Below, one piece after another: positions 24,511 to 35,874 of a stretch of DNA of 64,000 bases. The translations under genes were made by a program, and so were the position numbers. The DNA lies in contig JAPPHY010000003.1 in the NCBI GenBank assembly GCA_028877205.1, positions 64,083 to 128,082 of the forward strand, in the 5' to 3' direction. Source of the stretch: Chloroflexota bacterium (GTDB lineage: Bacteria; Chloroflexota; Dehalococcoidia; Lucifugimonadales; UBA2985). Numbering within the stretch: the stretch's first letter is position 1; each line of letters begins with the position of its first letter. Below the pieces are notes generated by a model. That model had not been told where the DNA came from. It was given only the letters and a program-made list of their open reading frames with translations, and searched no databases.

Positions 24511-24933
24511 TCATTCAGCTCGGGTTGGGTCCGACTGCGTTGCCCCTGAGGCTCCGCCGAAAACGGCCGCCAGAGCGCCATCGAAGGTCATGATCTGCCG
24601 GATGCCGCGCCGGCGGCAGCTTGCCAGGTGGCAGAGATCGCGGGACTGCAGGTCAGGGTACCGGTCATGGAGCTGCCTGGCCAGGGTCACGTCTGCAGCC
24701 TCCAGTGGCCACACCTCGACCACGGCGCTTGCAATGAGCATCATTGCTGCATCGAACACCAACAGCCGTCCTGCGGGCAGGTACAAGTGTGCCAACTCCT
24801 GCAGTACCTCCGCCGAGGTACATAACGGCGTTCCGCTCTCGTTGGCCTCGACGAAGAAGTCCTGGGCCGACTGCTGAAGAGGGTGGAACTGTCCGACCGC
24901 GTACATGAATACGTTGGTATCGACGAATATCAT
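24511..24933 (-). CDS. vapC: PIN-domain toxin (VapC-like)
   Basis: ATG at 24933 gives MIFVDTNVFMYAV...SAEVLQE...RDLCHLA, with PIN acidic residues. It overlaps the upstream antitoxin stop by 4 nt (ATGA). Confidence 0.8.
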   Translation of the reverse strand: MIFVDTNVFMYAVGQFHPLQQSAQDFFVEANESGTPLCTSAEVLQELAHLYLPAGRLLVFDAAMMLIASAVVEVWPLEAADVTLARQLHDRYPDLQSRDLCHLASCRRRGIRQIMTFDGALAAVFGGASGATQSDPTRAE

Positions 24934-25205
24934 GTGCCGGAAGATCCCATAGCCCTCGCCTTGTTGATTGCTCGCAGGTGCTCGCTCCAGCCCGGCTCCG
25001 TCCCGGGGCCCTCTAGCTGGTCGCACCATCGAAAAAATGACCTGACATCCTCTGGCGACTCGAAGAGCCTGACGCTGCGACTGGCCTCCAGGCGCTCGCG
25101 CGCAGCCACACGCAGCCATTCACTAAGGGACATGCCTTCGCGCCTTGCTTGGTCAACATAGCGCTCCCGGTCGTCGTCCGGCATCACAAGCTGCACTCGG
25201 GCCAT
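24930..25205 (-). CDS. vapB: ribbon-helix-helix (CopG/VapB-like) antitoxin
   Basis: MARVQLVMPDDDRERYVDQARREGMSLSEWLRVAARERLE is the RHH beta-strand plus two helices. It is translationally coupled to the PIN gene. Confidence 0.75.
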   Translation of the reverse strand: MARVQLVMPDDDRERYVDQARREGMSLSEWLRVAARERLEASRSVRLFESPEDVRSFFRWCDQLEGPGTEPGWSEHLRAINKARAMGSSGT

Positions 25206-25233
25206 GGTGTCCTTTCGCCTGCTCTTCAGGTGT

Positions 25234-25252: not shown

Positions 25253-25440
25253 TCGTTCGCGCGAGAAGTCAAACGTTACACGCCTCGGCATCACTCCACC
25301 TGAGCGAGGAGTGCTTGTGCGAGCTTCTCTCCTGGTCGGCCCCACACGCGCTTGATGCCGAACCTCTGCCGCTGCACCGATTGAATGCTGTGCAGCGGCG
25401 GTTGGCCGCAAAGGGCATGCTAGGAACCGAATGTTGGGTA

Positions 25441-25469
25441 TTGACAAAGTAACACGCTATTGATATGTT
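25441..25469 (+). promoter_or_regulatory. candidate promoter of the fur-family gene with an overlapping GATA-N3-TATC palindrome
   Basis: TTGACA (25441..25446), 17 nt, TATGTT (25464..25469) in an AT-rich island. GATATGTTATC overlaps the -10, and GATAGAAAGTATC lies further downstream. Confidence 0.4.
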
Positions 25470-25531
25470 ATCCTGCTTTCTGAAATGTCGAAGCCACTTT
25501 ATGGTGAATAGAGACGATAGAAAGTATCAAT

Positions 25532-25966
25532 ATGGATGTTGAGAAGGTGCCCACAAGTCTGATGGCGTCACTGCAGTCCCTGGGCTATAAGGCCACTGCT
25601 CCCAGAAAGGCGATAGCCGATCTCCTGGAGCAGAAGCATCAGGGCTTCACCGCCGAGGCGCTCAGTGAAGAGCTGCCTTCGGTAAGCAGGGCGACGGTAT
25701 ATCGAAACATCAAACTCTTTATTGAGGCAGGGGTGGTCTGCAGGCTCACCCTGATGGATGGTTCCCACGTGTACAGCGTCTCCCGGACTGATCATCACCA
25801 CCATCACTACGTATGCATGGACTGCGGCAAAGTGGAGGAGTTCAGGGCAAGTGCGGTCGAGCAGTTCGTGAGGTCCATCGCCGCCGAACTTCCGGGGCAG
25901 GTCGTGGACCACCGAATCGAGCTGTACGTGGCCTGTGATCGCTGTCCGGCCGAGCAGGCGGGGTAA
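25532..25966 (+). CDS. zur: Fur-family metalloregulator, probably Zur
   Basis: Winged-helix N-terminus, HHHHHYVCMDCGKVEEF and C-terminal CDRC (structural Zn site). It sits directly upstream of a ZnuA-type gene. Confidence 0.8.
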   Translation: MDVEKVPTSLMASLQSLGYKATAPRKAIADLLEQKHQGFTAEALSEELPSVSRATVYRNIKLFIEAGVVCRLTLMDGSHVYSVSRTDHHHHHYVCMDCGKVEEFRASAVEQFVRSIAAELPGQVVDHRIELYVACDRCPAEQAG

Positions 25967-26098
25967 CGCGCTTGGTTCCCACCGACCGAGATTCACCGAA
26001 ACGGGTTACTACATGAGACAACCTTGCAAAAGTGCCGCGTGCAAGATCAGGAAACAGCAAACTGGAATAGCTACACCTGAGCAGAAGGAGAACTATCG

Positions 26099-28402
26099 AT
26101 GGAACTGATACTCAATCGCACTGGAAGCCTGAGACGACTTGCGCAGACGCTGGCGTTGGGCATTGCCCTGTTCGCCCTCATGTTCTTGGGCGCCTGTGCA
26201 GGCGACGAGCCAACCGAGGCACCTCAGCCGACCGCCACTTCTACCAGCGCCCCGGCAACTGTTGTGGCAACCCCCACGGACGCACCTCCGCCCACGGAGG
26301 CTGCCGCTCCCTCAGGCCCGCAGCTCCAGGTGGTTGCCACCTCCAACATTGTGGCCGACTGGGCCGGGGTGGTAGGTGGTGATAGGGCTGAGGTCTTCAG
26401 CCTTCATCCATCGGGTGGCGATCCGCACAATCTCGTGCCGGGAGCAGGCGACGTTGCCAAGGTGGCCGACGCAGACGTTGTGTTGTCCATCGGGCTTGGC
26501 CTTGAGGCAGTCTGGTTGGAGGACCTGGTGCATAACGCCAGTGCAGATCCATCTAGGGTAGTTGCGCTTGGCAACGGCGTCGATCCTCTGGAGTTCGTGG
26601 AGACGGGCGGCCACGGCCACGATGATCACGATGATCACATGGATGAGGGCGGCGGTGAGCTGCTGGGGCGCCTGCTCATAGGCGATGGAGAGCTTGGGAA
26701 TCTCTCCGTTATTGACCTGGAAACGGGAGACGTGGACCAGGACCACTTTGACCTGGGCTCACGCGCCGGCCGGATATACGCAACCAAGAGCGGACGCTAC
26801 GCAATAGCCGTTTCCTCAGACGCCAATACGGCGCATGTGTTCGATGGCGGCATATACATGGAGCCGCATGGAGACCACTTCGACCTGGTCGAGGGCGACG
26901 TACGCAAGCTCCCCATCGACCTGAGCGGAGACCGGCCTGTCCACATGTACGTCGGCGGCGAGTGGGCCGCGGTCTACTACGACGGTTCCGGCGACTTCGT
27001 GCTGATCAATGAGCACGAGCTTGAGGAAGAGGGAGACTCCTACGTGCCGGTCAGTATGAACGCCGGTGCCCACCACGGCGCCGTGGTGCCGCTGGAAGGC
27101 GACCTGTTCGCAGTGACAATCCAGCACCCGGACTTTGACCAGAACCCCCAGGACTACCGATTACCCATCGGCGCCGAGATCTGGGATCTGGACGGCAACG
27201 TCCTCCATCGCGCGGAAGGCTGCCCCGACCTCCACGGCGACGCCGGCAACGGGCACATGGCCGTGTTCGGCTGCACCGGCGGGGTGCTGATGGTAGAGGC
27301 GCACGGCGGCGACTACGAACACGATTTCATTTCAGCTCCGGCCGGATCTCCCGAGGACTTTCGGCTCACATCCGTGTGGGGCTACTACGGCCTGGACCAC
27401 TTCTTCGCTCTGGGCTCGGCGGTGGGGCTGTACGTCGTGGAGCCGGAAGAGGGAGAGATGGAGATGCTCATCCCAGCTACAGAGGCTCTCCGCCCGATCC
27501 AGGTCCACCTTGGCCCTGGCGGTGAGACTCTGTTGGTGGTCATGAGTGACGGCGAGCTGCGAGTGTACGACGCCCACGACGGAGAACTGCGGGCGTCCAA
27601 GCGAGACTTTCTCACAGCGCCGGTGGAGACGGGCTTCTGGGCGCGACCTCACCTGGCCACCGCGCCTGGCGCAATCTTCATCACGGACTCGGTGGGAGGC
27701 GAAGTCCTGCAGCTGGACGAGCACGACCTGGAGGTGGTCAGGCACTGGGACGTGGCGGGAGTGCCCACCAAGATTGCTTTCGTTGGAATTATGGGTGAGG
27801 CTGAAGGCCACGAGGAGCATGGCCATGAAGAGGAAGGCCAGGACGAGCATGGCCACGAAGGGCACGACCACGGGCCTCTCGATCCCCATTTCTGGTTCGA
27901 TCCGAATCGAGTCAAGATTGCTGTCTACGATATAGCAGCTCGGCTCTCGGCACTTGACCCTGAGGGCGCTAGCTACTACTACCGGAACGCAGCGGACTAC
28001 GCGGTGCAGCTTGACGAGCTTCACACATGGATTCAGGAGCAGGTCAGCGTGGTGGCGCCGGAGCGCAGGCTGCTGGTTACGTCCCACGACACCTTCGCGT
28101 ACTTTGCAGATGTCTACGGGTTTGAGGTAATCGGTGCCCTCATTCCCTCCCTGGCGCCCGACGTGGAGCCCTCTGCGGAGCACCTTGCGGAAGTGGTCGA
28201 GGTGATCCGTGAGCACAACGCGCCGGCTGTATTCAGCGAAACGACGGTCAGCGGGAGGCTGCCGGAGGCCGTGGCTAGGGAGACTGGAGCGGAGTTTGCC
28301 CAGCTCTATGCGGACTCTCTGGGCGAAAGGGGCAGCCCGGCCGGCACGTACCTCGGTATGGTGCGAACAAACGTGGAGGTCATGGTCGGGGTGTTGAGGT
28401 GA
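26099..28402 (+). CDS. ZnuA/TroA-type metal-binding lipoprotein with a ~385-aa beta-propeller-like domain nested in the His-rich loop
   Basis: Lipobox FLGAC. N-lobe LQVVATSNIVADWAGVVGG...GGDPHNL. His/Asp run GHGHDDHDDH (26609..26640). Insert. Second His/Glu run EGHEEHGHEEEGQDEHGHEGHDHG (27803..27874). C-lobe PHFWFDPNRV...TSHDTFAYFADVYG...VFSETT. Confidence 0.8.
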   Translation: MELILNRTGSLRRLAQTLALGIALFALMFLGACAGDEPTEAPQPTATSTSAPATVVATPTDAPPPTEAAAPSGPQLQVVATSNIVADWAGVVGGDRAEVFSLHPSGGDPHNLVPGAGDVAKVADADVVLSIGLGLEAVWLEDLVHNASADPSRVVALGNGVDPLEFVETGGHGHDDHDDHMDEGGGELLGRLLIGDGELGNLSVIDLETGDVDQDHFDLGSRAGRIYATKSGRYAIAVSSDANTAHVFDGGIYMEPHGDHFDLVEGDVRKLPIDLSGDRPVHMYVGGEWAAVYYDGSGDFVLINEHELEEEGDSYVPVSMNAGAHHGAVVPLEGDLFAVTIQHPDFDQNPQDYRLPIGAEIWDLDGNVLHRAEGCPDLHGDAGNGHMAVFGCTGGVLMVEAHGGDYEHDFISAPAGSPEDFRLTSVWGYYGLDHFFALGSAVGLYVVEPEEGEMEMLIPATEALRPIQVHLGPGGETLLVVMSDGELRVYDAHDGELRASKRDFLTAPVETGFWARPHLATAPGAIFITDSVGGEVLQLDEHDLEVVRHWDVAGVPTKIAFVGIMGEAEGHEEHGHEEEGQDEHGHEGHDHGPLDPHFWFDPNRVKIAVYDIAARLSALDPEGASYYYRNAADYAVQLDELHTWIQEQVSVVAPERRLLVTSHDTFAYFADVYGFEVIGALIPSLAPDVEPSAEHLAEVVEVIREHNAPAVFSETTVSGRLPEAVARETGAEFAQLYADSLGERGSPAGTYLGMVRTNVEVMVGVLR

Positions 28403-28565
28403 GCTTCTACTTCAAACTACAAGGAAGGAGCACGTCGCCCGTGGGCCTGACTGTTGAGTTCGAAGGCCCACGGCCCTGGGCCAAGTAAGTGCCGGGGGTC
28501 CTGGGGGTAGAGACGGGCAATCTGGAAAGTAACACACTCGGGAAGTCAGATTGTAAGGAGGAGAG

Positions 28566-28868: not shown

Positions 28869-29096
28869 TCAGCGCGGGCTCAAGTCCGGCTCATCTATCT
28901 CGTCCATCTCGTTGCACCCGTGGAACAATGCCCAAAGGTCCTCCGGTGACTCGAGACGCATGACGCTTCTACCGGCCTCGATGCGCTCGCGTGCTGCGTC
29001 CAGCAGCCACGCGTCAAGGGACATGCCCTCGCGCCGCGCCTGGTGGACAAAGCGCTCCTGGTCCTCGTCGGATATCACAAGTTCCACTCTGGCCAT
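28869..29096 (-). CDS. orphan ribbon-helix-helix antitoxin paralogue
   Basis: MARVELVISDEDQERFVHQARREGMSLDAWLLDAARERIE is clearly paralogous to the antitoxin at 24930..25205. There is no room for a toxin gene downstream: 47 nt separate it from the hairpin. Confidence 0.65.
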   Translation of the reverse strand: MARVELVISDEDQERFVHQARREGMSLDAWLLDAARERIEAGRSVMRLESPEDLWALFHGCNEMDEIDEPDLSPR

Positions 29097-29177
29097 ACTG
29101 TCACCTCGTTTGCGCAATCGAGAGTGTGTAACGCTCCTCTATGCTGACGGGAGTTGAGTCAATCGCAACGCCCCCAA

Positions 29178-30533
29178 TCACCCCGCCGCCGCTCGCAGCG
29201 CGCGAGCCAACGGCTCTTCCTGGCCGGGGAGCACGGTGCGCGGGTCGATGACCACCCGGTCGTCCTCGATGCGTGCAACGACGGGCGGTTCACCCGCGCG
29301 CAGTCTGGCCGCGAGTGCCTGCGCATCACCCGCGTCGACCGTGAGCAGCCACGTCGGGAGCGTCTCGCCGGGCAGGCTGCCGCCTCCCACTGTCGACAGG
29401 CCGCGCTCGACGCTGCCAATGCCGCCTGCGGCCTCCTGTAGCCTGCGGGCCGCCGCCTCCAGGCCGTCGAGCGGCGCGGCCATCATCCTCCACACCGGTA
29501 TCGCTTCCACGGCCTCGCCCTTCAGATAGTGCACGAGTGTTGCCGTTAGGGCCGCCAGGCTGAGCTTGTCGATTCGCATAGCGCGGGCCAGTGGGTGGGC
29601 AGCCAGGAGCGACACCGCCTCTCGCTTGCCCACAATGATGCCGGCCTGCGGACCCCCAAGGAGCTTGTCGCCGGAGAAGCAGGCGAGGTCGACGCTCGCG
29701 GTCACGCTCTGCTGCACCATCGGCTCGTGCGCCAGCCCAAAGCGAGCCGTGTCCAGCAGGCATCCGCTGCCCAGGTCGTGGATCACCGGCACTCCGTGTC
29801 GCGCGCCCATCTCCACCAGCTCGTCGACGGTCGCCTCGTGGGTGAATCCGGTGATGACGAAGTTGCTGGAGTGGACCTTCAGGAGCGCGCCCGTTTCGGC
29901 GCAGATCGCGTCCTCGTAGTCGGCGGCGTAGGTACGGTTGGTGGTGCCCACCTCCCGCAGGACGGCGCCGCTACGATTGAGCACGTCCGGAATACGAAAC
30001 CCGCCGCCGATCTCCACGGCCTCGCCTCGGGATACGACGACCTCTCTGCCGTGCGCGATTGCCGAAAGCGCGAGCAGCACGGCGGAGGCGTTGTTGTTGA
30101 CGACCAGGGCGGCCTCCGCACCCGTCAGGCGGCGCAGGACGCTCGACACGTGGGCCTGCCTCGAGCCGCGTGTGCCATCGTACAGGTCAAGCTCCAGGTC
30201 GGAGTAGGACGTTGCCACGCGTGCGACGGCCTCGGCTGCGGCGTCGCTGAGCGGCGCGCGGCCGAGGTTGGTGTGCAGCACGACGCCCGTGGCGTTGATC
30301 ACGGCCGATGGCGATGCGGCTAGCAGCCGTGAGGCTTGGGCGCACACGTCATAGACGAGCTCATCAAGCGGGGGTGGCGGGACGCCATCCGCCACGCCAC
30401 GGCGAGCGTCCTCCAGACGCTCGCGTGCCAGTGCGGCAACCGTATCGTGCGAGGCTTCAACGGCCAGGGCGCGCAGGCGTGCGTCGGACAGGAGCCTGTC
30501 GACGCTCGGTATGCGTCTGTAGCCGGTTGACAT
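29178..30533 (-). CDS. selA: L-seryl-tRNA(Sec) selenium transferase
   Basis: RRIPSVDRLL N-terminus, INATGVVLHTNLGRAPL, and FSGDKLLGGPQAGII (PLP lysine motif). 451 aa. Confidence 0.9.
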   Translation of the reverse strand: MSTGYRRIPSVDRLLSDARLRALAVEASHDTVAALARERLEDARRGVADGVPPPPLDELVYDVCAQASRLLAASPSAVINATGVVLHTNLGRAPLSDAAAEAVARVATSYSDLELDLYDGTRGSRQAHVSSVLRRLTGAEAALVVNNNASAVLLALSAIAHGREVVVSRGEAVEIGGGFRIPDVLNRSGAVLREVGTTNRTYAADYEDAICAETGALLKVHSSNFVITGFTHEATVDELVEMGARHGVPVIHDLGSGCLLDTARFGLAHEPMVQQSVTASVDLACFSGDKLLGGPQAGIIVGKREAVSLLAAHPLARAMRIDKLSLAALTATLVHYLKGEAVEAIPVWRMMAAPLDGLEAAARRLQEAAGGIGSVERGLSTVGGGSLPGETLPTWLLTVDAGDAQALAARLRAGEPPVVARIEDDRVVIDPRTVLPGQEEPLARALRAAAG

Positions 30534-35415: not shown

Positions 35416-35874
35416 CTAGAGCCGGTCCAGCTCCTCCAGGATCTCGCTGGGATTGGGCAGGCCCTGCGTGTACACCTTCTTGAACCGGATCACGCCCTCT
35501 TTGTCGATGATGATGACGGCGCGCATGGTGACGCCCCGCTCCTCGTTGTAGATGCCGAACAGCTGCGACACGTGGCCCTTGGGGTGGAAATCGGCCAGGA
35601 GTGGGTAGGGCAGGTTGCCCAGCCCCGTTGCGAAGGCCCTCTGCGTTGGTGCGCTGTCGACGCTCATGCCCAGAACCTGGGCATCCTTCTCCTCGAACCG
35701 GCGGTTCTCCAGCCGGAACCCGGAGCACTGGTGCGTTCAACCGCCTGTGAAGGACATGACGTGGGTCTGCAGGACCACGTTCTTCTGTCCCAGGTATTGG
35801 CTCAGGGTGATGTCCTCGCCCGTGTGGGAACGGAGGGTGAAGTCGGGCGCCTTATCTCCTACTTCTGCCGGCAT
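35416..35874 (-). CDS. AhpE-like 1-Cys peroxiredoxin with selenocysteine (in-frame UGA at 35739..35737)
   Basis: ATG at 35874 sits behind GGAGG. ORFs 35737..35958 and 35416..35667 are in the same frame. The joined product is MPAEVGDKAPDFTLRSHTGEDITLSQYLGQKNVVLQTHVMSFTGG-U-THQCSGFRLENRRFEEKDAQVLGMSVDSAPTQRAFATGLGNLPYPLLADFHPKGHVSQLFGIYNEERGVTMRAVIIIDKEGVIRF... The UGA falls where AhpE-type enzymes have the peroxidatic Cys (AFTGIC). Confidence 0.75.
35698..35723 (-). other. candidate bacterial SECIS hairpin
   Basis: The mRNA 13 nt after the UGA reads CCGG-GUUC-[CGGCUGGA]-GAAC-(CG)-CCGG. That is two 4-bp stems with a 2-nt bulge and an 8-nt G-rich loop. Folded by eye only. Confidence 0.4.

Follow-up and report, generated by a model that had tools for sequence, protein, structure and literature searches.

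Why would a bacterial metal-binding protein of the ZnuA type be interrupted in its middle by several hundred additional residues? The question is raised by a gene in a 64,000-nucleotide stretch of contig JAPPHY010000003.1 (positions 64,083 to 128,082 of the forward strand; assembly GCA_028877205.1) from a sponge-associated Chloroflexota bacterium of the Dehalococcoidia (Lucifugimonadales, UBA2985). We call this whole stretch the window and number its positions from its first letter. We propose that the gene product is, with good probability, a membrane-anchored extracytoplasmic lipoprotein in which an AztC-like zinc-binding protein carries an AztD-like propeller nested in one of its loops. The architecture is not unique to the window gene and belongs to a large conserved family in Dehalococcoidia.

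One uninterrupted gene for a split binding protein

The gene, at 26099-28402 on the + strand, is a single open reading frame (ORF) with an ATG start and without an internal stop, and encodes 767 residues. Six parts can be told apart in its product:

26099..26314, + strand: signal peptide with lipobox FLGA-C33, then a Pro/Thr/Ala-rich disordered stalk (residues 34-72); from sequence, conservation and an AlphaFold2 (AF2) model
26321..26602, + strand: N-lobe of a cluster A-I, AztC-like binding protein, residues ~75-168, with ligand H110 (DPH motif); from Pfam ZnuA and alignment to AztC 5w56
26603..26665, + strand: N-side His/Asp-rich tether, residues ~169-189 GGHGHDDHDDHMDEGGGELLG, the first half of a split D-loop
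26666..27787, + strand: AztD-type 8-bladed beta-propeller, residues ~190-563; from NCBIfam, PDB alignment, Foldseek and conservation
27788..27880, + strand: C-side His/Glu/Asp-rich tether, residues ~564-594
27881..28402, + strand: AztC-like C-lobe with a long inter-lobe helix and ligands H597 (DPHFW), H663 (TSHD) and D739 (LYADSLG); from AztC/PsaA alignment, column statistics and AF2

Two stretches of the protein match Pfam ZnuA (PF01297), with 261.7 bits at a cutoff of 29, and an unannotated gap of ~390 residues separates them. An earlier note, made from the letters of this DNA, had described just such a ZnuA-type protein around an insert of about 385 residues; we measure ~385-390 residues between the lobes and find every motif that it quoted, with GHGHDDHDDH at residues 171-180, MEPHGDHFDL at 254-263 and EGHEEHGHEEEGQDEHGHEGHDHG at 569-592, as well as every one of its blade-like strings.

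Could the arrangement be an artefact, either a misassembled or chimeric contig that joins the gene of a substrate-binding protein (SBP) to a separate propeller gene, or a generic YVTN/WD40 propeller without a metal role? All that speaks for it is the unusual length and the fact that Pfam, which has no AztD model, shows just a split ZnuA domain. Over 25400-28450, a stretch that spans both junctions, three independent sponge-metagenome run assemblies show zero differences, gaps or joints, the X3 contig stopping at 28359. More than 120 full-length homologues with 60-83% identity are on record in the protein database, and the fusion ORFs extracted from other genomes are uninterrupted with an identical insertion point in all 56 cases, sharing the order N-tether, GRLL(I/V)(G/A)D ... 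AFVG, C-tether, H-x-H-G-x-x-DPHFW. The misassembly of two genes that the earlier note had itself raised is thus contradicted by run assemblies and homologues alike, and a generic propeller is opposed by the AztD-specific features described below; we regard the artefact as hardly credible in either form. A scan of species-representative genomes returned ~60 loci, nearly all of them in metagenome-assembled genomes (MAGs) of Dehalococcoidia, including SAR202 and sponge-derived bins.

The insert resembles AztD specifically

Sequence profile, PDB sequence search, AF2 and Foldseek all point to AztD in particular and not to a generic YVTN or WD40 propeller, so that the searches of the insert against AztD yielded both sequence similarity and the propeller fold that the earlier note had suspected. 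For the insert alone, AztD (NF038015) is the only NCBIfam match; it spans residues 198-562 and profile positions 5-354 of 356, with E-values of 2.3e-37 to 1.8e-36, far from anything that chance would give. Phmmer against PDB sequences retrieves the AztD proteins of Paracoccus denitrificans and Citrobacter koseri (6ck1/6cmk) at ~1e-31. The AF2 model, built on 96 homologues (mean predicted local distance difference test score, pLDDT, 83; predicted template-modelling score, pTM, 0.55), is confident in lobes and propeller, where most 10-residue blocks have a pLDDT of at least 90, and places ~33 strands within residues 190-563. Foldseek against the PDB gives AztD structures (6cmk, 6n01, 6ck1) as all of its best nine matches, with target TM 0.83-0.86, a root-mean-square deviation of ~2.9 Å and E-values of 1e-26 to 1e-30. 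The next-best propeller follows at 8e-14, and by E-value AztD structures outrank every other propeller by more than 13 orders of magnitude.

Both metal sites of AztD are recognizable as well. We aligned the insert to P. denitrificans AztD (PdAztD), for which chain numbering equals published numbering and the identities of the metal ligands have been reported (PMC6689063). Site 2 of PdAztD, His99-Gly100-x-His102-x-Asp104, corresponds to H257-G258-D259-H260-F261-D262 within MEPHGDHFDL, and site 1, His124, His167 and His218, to H282, H326 and H379. PdAztD further has conserved disulfide cysteines, Cys214 and Cys231, whose counterparts here, C375/C392, are the sole cysteines of the protein apart from the lipobox Cys33. 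Among 96 family members, the residues of site 1, site 2 and the cysteine pair show no variation or a conservation of at least 90%, and all of them are found in 56 of 56 fusion ORFs from other genomes. AztD His408, a C-terminal fourth ligand of site 2, is only 68% conserved among AztDs (PMC6689063); the candidates for its equivalent here, H571 and H574 of the C-side tether, are conserved in 85 and 87 of the 96 members, respectively. This conservation of AztD-specific ligands and cysteines, together with the structural ranking, argues against a propeller without a metal role.

One element of the earlier proposal has to be given up. The His-rich N-terminal tail of AztD, which the note took to hand zinc to AztC, is a tract reported without a transfer role, the donor being site 2 (PMC7463823, PMC6689063). 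Pfam lacks a model for AztD, so annotation based on it passes over the insert, which is probably also why the public names of these proteins are "ZnuA" or "zinc ABC transporter substrate-binding protein".

The lobes carry the ligands of AztC

Among NCBIfam models the flanks of the insert match AztC best (NF040870, 1.1e-70), and the ZnuA profile reaches 91 bits against 249 for AztC. When the insert is spliced out, the lobes close up into one match over positions 1-275 of the 277 of the AztC profile, and their top PDB match is AztC 5w56 (4.3e-39). In the AF2 model a helix of residues 621-650 joins the lobes, most blocks of which have a pLDDT of ~80-97, and in Foldseek the lobes match AztC, YfeA, PsaA and TroA, ranking after the AztD structures.

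H110, H597 and H663 are invariant in the family, and all three are present in 56 of 56 fusion ORFs. The third ligand, H663, is a His, in contrast to the Glu that PsaA and other Mn/Fe-type proteins have. D739 aligns with AztC Asp279 and PsaA Asp280, and we assign the fourth ligand to it because the PsaA D280N mutant entry (4uto vs 4utp) places this ligand in the motif (L/I)(Y/F)xDS(L/I). By alignment, then, the window protein carries the predicted His3Asp ligand set of AztC, H110/H597/H663/D739; in P. denitrificans AztC this set consists of the His of the N-lobe, His138, His204 and Asp279. A different fourth ligand, S718 of an ETTVS motif in a "Ser-substituted 3-His site", was considered and is ruled out by the PsaA D280N mutant sequence. 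The fourth-ligand column, which in the window is codon 739 (28313-28315), is Asp in 26 of 96 family members, including the whole sub-lineage of the window gene, and Gly in 70 of 96.

At the N-terminus, A32 and C33 of the lipobox are at least 90% conserved in the family, and AF2 predicts a helix at residues 2-32 followed by pLDDT values below 50 at 33-67. The putative lipoprotein signal and stalk fit membrane anchoring in a monoderm Chloroflexota cell. Export by the twin-arginine translocation (Tat) route, for which the RR at residues 12-13 was considered, is dismissed because the twin Arg is absent from the family consensus.

The propeller interrupts the D-loop

Where the propeller enters the binding protein bears directly on how the two might work together. 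It splits the segment that runs from the N-lobe strand ...VDPLEF to the ligand motif ...GHDHGPLDPHFW, which is the D-loop of AztC (EEPGGGHYHYIDGKAVFHAGAHDPHAW in 5w56). The position of the D-loop is conserved and His-rich on either side of the break, with H172 on the N-side and an invariant H589-x-H591-G592 in the C-side tether. Across the 56 fusions the N-side tether is 15-51 residues long, with a median H+D+E fraction of 0.56, and the C-side tether 20-75 residues. The two tethers of the window protein together hold 11 His. The last propeller strand continues straight into the C-side tether, which is coded partly by a repeat of 15-nucleotide period (27796-27870, repeat family D2). Both linkers are disordered in AF2 (pLDDT below 50 at 167-185 and 567-590), and this disorder together with the pTM of the model fits flexible tethering and suggests that the domains have no fixed orientation.

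In the two-protein system, the D-loop of AztC and its His have been reported as essential for zinc transfer from AztD (PMC6689063, PMC7463823). A published docking model lets the D-loop enter the AztD pore, with site 2 ~10 Å from the AztC site, and site 2 itself sits on an extension built from the N- and C-terminal strands of AztD (PMC6689063, PMC7463823). Since the D-loop and the site-2 extension coincide with the attachment points of the insert, nesting would connect the two surfaces through which, on this model, AztC and AztD meet transiently.

Neighbouring regulator and transporter genes

A regulator gene and its promoter region lie directly upstream of the fusion gene:

25441..25472, + strand: promoter-like site TTGACA, 17 nt, TATGTT, extended TG; promoter scan
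25461-25472, + strand: palindromic Fur-box-like motif TGATATGTTATC overlapping the promoter-like site; motif scan
25532..25966, + strand: Fur-family metalloregulator, 144 residues, with CxxC...CxxC structural-site motifs; Pfam FUR 8.2e-28

The fusion gene starts 132 nucleotides after the Fur-family gene, with no promoter- or terminator-like site in between, and the same order, Fur-family gene directly upstream of fusion, is found in most related loci. The regulator matches Fur (3.9e-20), Streptomyces coelicolor Zur (3.2e-16) and Mycobacterium tuberculosis FurB (7.8e-14) in the PDB, and we treat it as a candidate Zur. The promoter-like site upstream of it is the only strong one on the + strand. 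The TGATATNNTATC motif has one site in the window, and if one mismatch is allowed, at least one match occurs in 39 of 100 shuffles (chance expectation 0.55). Because rarity alone is weak, the significance of the box rests on conservation across genomes: TTGACA and TGATAT..TATC recur upstream of the Fur gene in L001-L007. The box is a candidate autoregulated operator of the two-gene unit.

Does the fusion protein work with a transporter? The earlier note had seen no znuB or znuC next to the gene. This holds for the lineage of the window genome; it does not hold for many relatives, in which genes for an ATP-binding cassette (ABC) ATPase and an ABC-3 permease follow immediately downstream (L007, L033, L081, L008-L020 and others). 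The loci closest to the window (group A; L001-L006 and L010) consist of the Fur and fusion genes only. In group B (L007, L033, L081), whose lobes are 62-70% identical to those of the window protein, the fusion is followed by ABC ATPase and ABC-3 permease; L007 and L033 have the Fur gene upstream too, and in L081 stop and start codons overlap. In the 14 loci of group C, too, ATPase and permease genes come after the fusion. Group D (~22 loci) has a different ZnuA-like scaffold, with lobes 31-39% identical, and is mostly without adjacent ABC genes, three of its loci having a permease only. Because the operons of relatives carry both ATPase and ABC-3 permease, we take the fusion family to be the binding-protein component of cluster A-I importers.

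Weighing the assignment

Several observations weigh against the reading of the window protein as a fused AztC-AztD pair that supplies zinc to an importer. The AztD score of the insert, 126-129 bits, is below the NCBI curated cutoff of 400, and the AztC score of the lobes, 238-249 bits, is under the NCBI equivalog cutoff of 350; because both parts stay under these cutoffs, we file the protein as a fusion of AztC-like and AztD-like parts and not of orthologues. The Deinococcus MntC model gives the lobes 232 bits, nearly equal to the 249 of AztC, so that zinc specificity is a prediction, and NCBIfam and PDB similarity are ambiguous on the subtype of the regulator. With a pTM of only 0.55, the model does not fix the inter-domain geometry. 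P. denitrificans grows in zinc-limited medium even without AztD (PMC6689063), so that a benefit of fusing AztD is something that we infer. Finally, tblastn with the partner genes of a relative found no ABC-3 permease or cognate ATPase in the 64-kb window, none lies within +/-10 kb in the eight closest lineage members (group A), and among the best 120 of 5470 ABC-3 matches from across the database none was placed on a group-A chromosome.

These last results bear on the possibility that the fusion is an orphan in the window lineage, acting as a stand-alone surface lipoprotein for capture, buffering or storage of zinc, in the manner of a tethered zincophore-like sink, or as the sensor partner of a Fur-family regulon, with no ABC delivery. 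Eight group-A loci, L053 and the ~22 loci of group D have Fur and fusion genes and no adjacent pair of ATPase and permease, and ABC-3 genes are likewise missing next to P0286 and P0297, two distant homologues of the nested type. The fourth ligand is Asp in all eight transporter-less group-A genes and in L053, as opposed to the Gly, and thus the ZnuA-like His3 site, of the transporter-linked groups B, C and E; insert-less relatives also have Gly. The protein moreover has many potential zinc sites, two in the propeller and one in the lobes besides the 11 tether His. However, the lobes keep every functional feature of cluster A-I proteins, including the inter-lobe helix and the ligands, and their closeness to group B ties them to relatives in ABC operons. 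It is also common for an SBP gene to stand alone and to work with a permease encoded at another place. We therefore consider an orphan without ABC delivery unlikely and prefer an importer component for the window protein too.

The near-equal MntC score raises a second possibility, namely that the same architecture handles another metal (manganese, iron, nickel or cobalt) and that the neighbouring regulator is a Fur or Mur and not a Zur. Many of the top PDB matches of the lobes are Mn/Fe proteins (PsaA, YfeA), and the best PDB and NCBIfam matches of the regulator are Fur. His3Asp sites, for example that of TroA, can bind several metals. Against this stand the third ligand, which is His (H663) and unlike the Glu of PsaA, and the insert, whose sole profile match is a zinc chaperone and which retains both zinc sites of that chaperone. 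Among the sister architectures, some nest ZinT and one adjoins COG0523, both of which are zinc-linked. His-rich loops have also been described as indicative of zinc specificity, with His/Asp/Glu-rich loops marking the zinc-specific members (PMC7463823). Another metal seems to us quite improbable, and zinc is the metal on which we base the proposal that follows.

Proposed mechanism

Starting from what was observed, namely the architecture and fold, the conservation of the ligands and of the family, and the operon contexts, we infer zinc as the metal, intramolecular transfer and regulation by the upstream gene. The Fur-family (Zur-like) regulator would repress expression at the box that overlaps the -10 element. 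In the expressed protein, the His-rich tethers (~20 and ~30 residues) and the two high-affinity sites of the propeller would capture scarce Zn(II); AztD of the two-protein system is characterized by nanomolar affinity for Zn(II) and by an associative hand-over to the SBP. Site 2, located where the tethers attach, could then swing into the cleft of the lobes and hand its zinc to H110/H597/H663/D739 via ligand exchange. Assembly of AztD and AztC into their complex has been reported to be slow and rate-limiting (PMC6689063); in the fusion this bimolecular encounter would become intramolecular. The zinc-loaded binding protein would finally dock on an ABC-3 permease/ATPase, which the window genome, unlike many relatives, would encode at a distance from the fusion gene if at all.

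Apparent exchange of inserts and wider distribution

Two types of insert, with a mutual identity of just 36-39%, occupy the same loop. Type 1, the insert of the window protein, keeps an identity of 70-89% in scaffolds with lobes anywhere between 31% and 88% identical to those of the window; the scaffolds of type 2 show 53-88% identity to that of the window. The occurrence of a single insert type in scaffolds as different as 31-88% identity speaks for transient docking and against a rigid interface shaped by co-evolution; such docking matches the report that the two-protein AztC-AztD complex is non-stable (PMC6689063). The locus L053:7964-10525 is a chimera, with lobes 91% identical to those of L006 and an insert only 36% identical. 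The L053 insert instead shares 85% identity with the inserts of L043 and L052, and the lobes of these two are 67-70% identical to the L053 lobes. Similarity of L053 to group A reaches into both His-rich tethers, and the apparent breakpoints lie inside the linkers. Recombination within the linker-coding repeats would be the simplest explanation of the exchange.

A HMMER scan with the insert over 1.84 billion representatives returned 629 AztD-like clusters, most of them stand-alone proteins of ~400-470 residues. P0242 and its cluster members, from Deltaproteobacteria MAGs (417 residues), are stand-alone AztD proteins with a signal peptide that are 65% identical to the type-1 insert; AztD of this type could be either the donor lineage of the insert or the result of secondary excision. 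The scan also revealed a second nested lineage of ~50 clusters (696-760 residues), with inserts 27-31% identical to that of the window. Against AztC its lobes reach 283-300 bits, and against AztD its inserts reach 226-254 bits; Chloroflexi is the annotation of one member, and one adjoins a gene of CobW/COG0523, a marker of zinc limitation.

Other combinations of the same domains were seen. In P0454 (520 residues) ZinT is nested alone in an AztC-like loop, and in P0286 (L082:1779-4466) and P0409, of ~895 residues, ZinT and AztD follow in series within such a loop, with the precomputed Pfam order ZnuA-ZinT-ZnuA. P0459 (591 residues) is a tandem of AztD and ZinT, the AztD part of which, at 414 bits, is above the NCBI cutoff. 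Three loci of Dehalococcoidia (L057:9536-12520, L058 and L059) have ORFs of ~990-1000 residues with two tandem AztD-like propellers and no SBP lobes. The bacterial protein P0241 (1094 residues) has three N-terminal repeats and then a type-1 AztD domain 70% identical to the window insert. Five AztD-like stretches occur in a eukaryotic protein, P0266 of Diplonema papillatum (KAJ9458053.1, 2432 residues, "Histidine-rich membrane protein KE4-like").

An insert-less relative was found in an Acidimicrobiia MAG. This SBP (L054:10187-11302) is 70-73% identical to the window lobes, its ATPase and permease are ~80% identical to those of the Dehalococcoidia relative L081, and in its loop near-perfect MHDDHADHDDEE repeats extend over ~100 residues. 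These features suggest that the transporter moved laterally from one phylum to another and that a long His-rich loop was possibly where the insertion landed.

We put forward a broader proposal tentatively, and with less confidence than the assignment of the protein itself: that nesting produced an intramolecular relay, that recombination at the repeat-encoded His-rich tethers has moved different AztD types, and ZinT, as a swappable cassette between the binding-protein scaffolds of Chloroflexota, and that the sub-lineage with Asp at the fourth ligand and without transporter genes, to which the window gene belongs, may be an autonomous surface zinc trap.

Genomic surroundings

Direct repeats of 211 nucleotides (25012-25222 and 28903-29113; 73% identical) bracket the Fur-fusion pair. 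They encode paralogous antitoxin-like ORFs, one of which accompanies a PIN-domain toxin at 24511-24933 on the - strand and the other of which is an orphan. The FolC-FabF...SelA flanks are shared only by the relative L005, with a 12.5-kb variable region between them, and we therefore place the pair in a variable island.

Farther along the window, an AhpC/TSA-family ORF (35416-35874, - strand) has an in-frame TGA (35737-35739) at the expected peroxidatic Cys (...SFTGG*THQC...) and is reported by gene callers as fragments of 45 and 83 residues. SelA, selenocysteine synthase, is encoded ~5 kb away at 29178-30533 (- strand). The split ORF probably encodes a selenocysteine-containing peroxiredoxin.

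Relation to known systems and significance

The closest parallel is AztABCD of Paracoccus denitrificans (PDB 5w56/5w57, 6ck1, 6cmk). Both of its components recur here, the His3Asp scaffold as well as the 8-bladed propeller with site 1 (three His), site 2 (HxxHxD) and the cysteine pair, and so do flexible segments rich in His, a neighbouring Fur-family gene and, among relatives, adjacent genes for an ABC ATPase and an ABC-3 permease. Whereas AztD is a separate periplasmic protein that forms a transient complex, the window protein is one polypeptide with AztD inside the D-loop of AztC; it is a monoderm lipoprotein, it is ~25-28% identical to AztD and ~35% to AztC, and its genome has no adjacent aztA or aztB.

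Streptococcal AdcA, a ZnuA-like protein with a C-terminal ZinT (PDB 7jj9), resembles the window protein in that a zinc-recruiting accessory domain is covalently joined to a cluster A-I lipoprotein, which raises the local concentration of the chaperone (PMC7858048, PMC6689063). In AdcA the accessory is a lipocalin-like ZinT joined end to end in tandem, whereas in the window protein it is an AztD propeller placed as a domain within a domain. ZinT has no Pfam or NCBIfam match in the window protein, and the AdcA profile (NF033605) covers positions 127-290 of 517, which is the SBP part only. With ZnuA and ZnuA-ZinT of Gram-negative bacteria the protein shares the cluster A-I fold and a His/Asp/Glu-rich loop before DPHxW, the site of interaction with accessory proteins, and its transporter-linked relatives share the His3 site with Gly at the Asp position. 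The loop of ZnuA, however, is a short disordered peptide, whereas that of the window protein holds a folded domain of ~375 residues.

We found no description of an SBP-AztD fusion in the papers searched on AztD or on ZnuA with a propeller, in line with the remark of the earlier note that it had not seen one described, though a mention in the 2015 AztD paper is possible. The paper on the AztD structure surveyed 577 homologues with their gene neighbourhoods, and the one fusion that it names is that of ZinT in AdcA. The fusion is a real, conserved and apparently undescribed variant of a system whose zinc hand-off has been known from separate proteins only.

How zinc passes directly from one protein to another beyond the cytoplasm is understood for very few systems, and for the transient AztD-AztC complex docking models are all there is. 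A natural covalent AztC-AztD chimera, as a stable and stoichiometric object, could serve crystallography, cryo-electron microscopy and nuclear magnetic resonance of the transfer geometry, and offers a natural test of the model in which the D-loop enters the pore. The apparent exchange of cassettes through low-complexity linkers is a useful case for the evolution and engineering of domain insertion. In marine and sponge-associated Dehalococcoidia, SAR202 among them, the family is abundant, and zinc acquisition there has been annotated only as "ZnuA". Monoderms, unable to retain a soluble periplasmic chaperone, may solve this problem by domain insertion, in parallel to AdcA.

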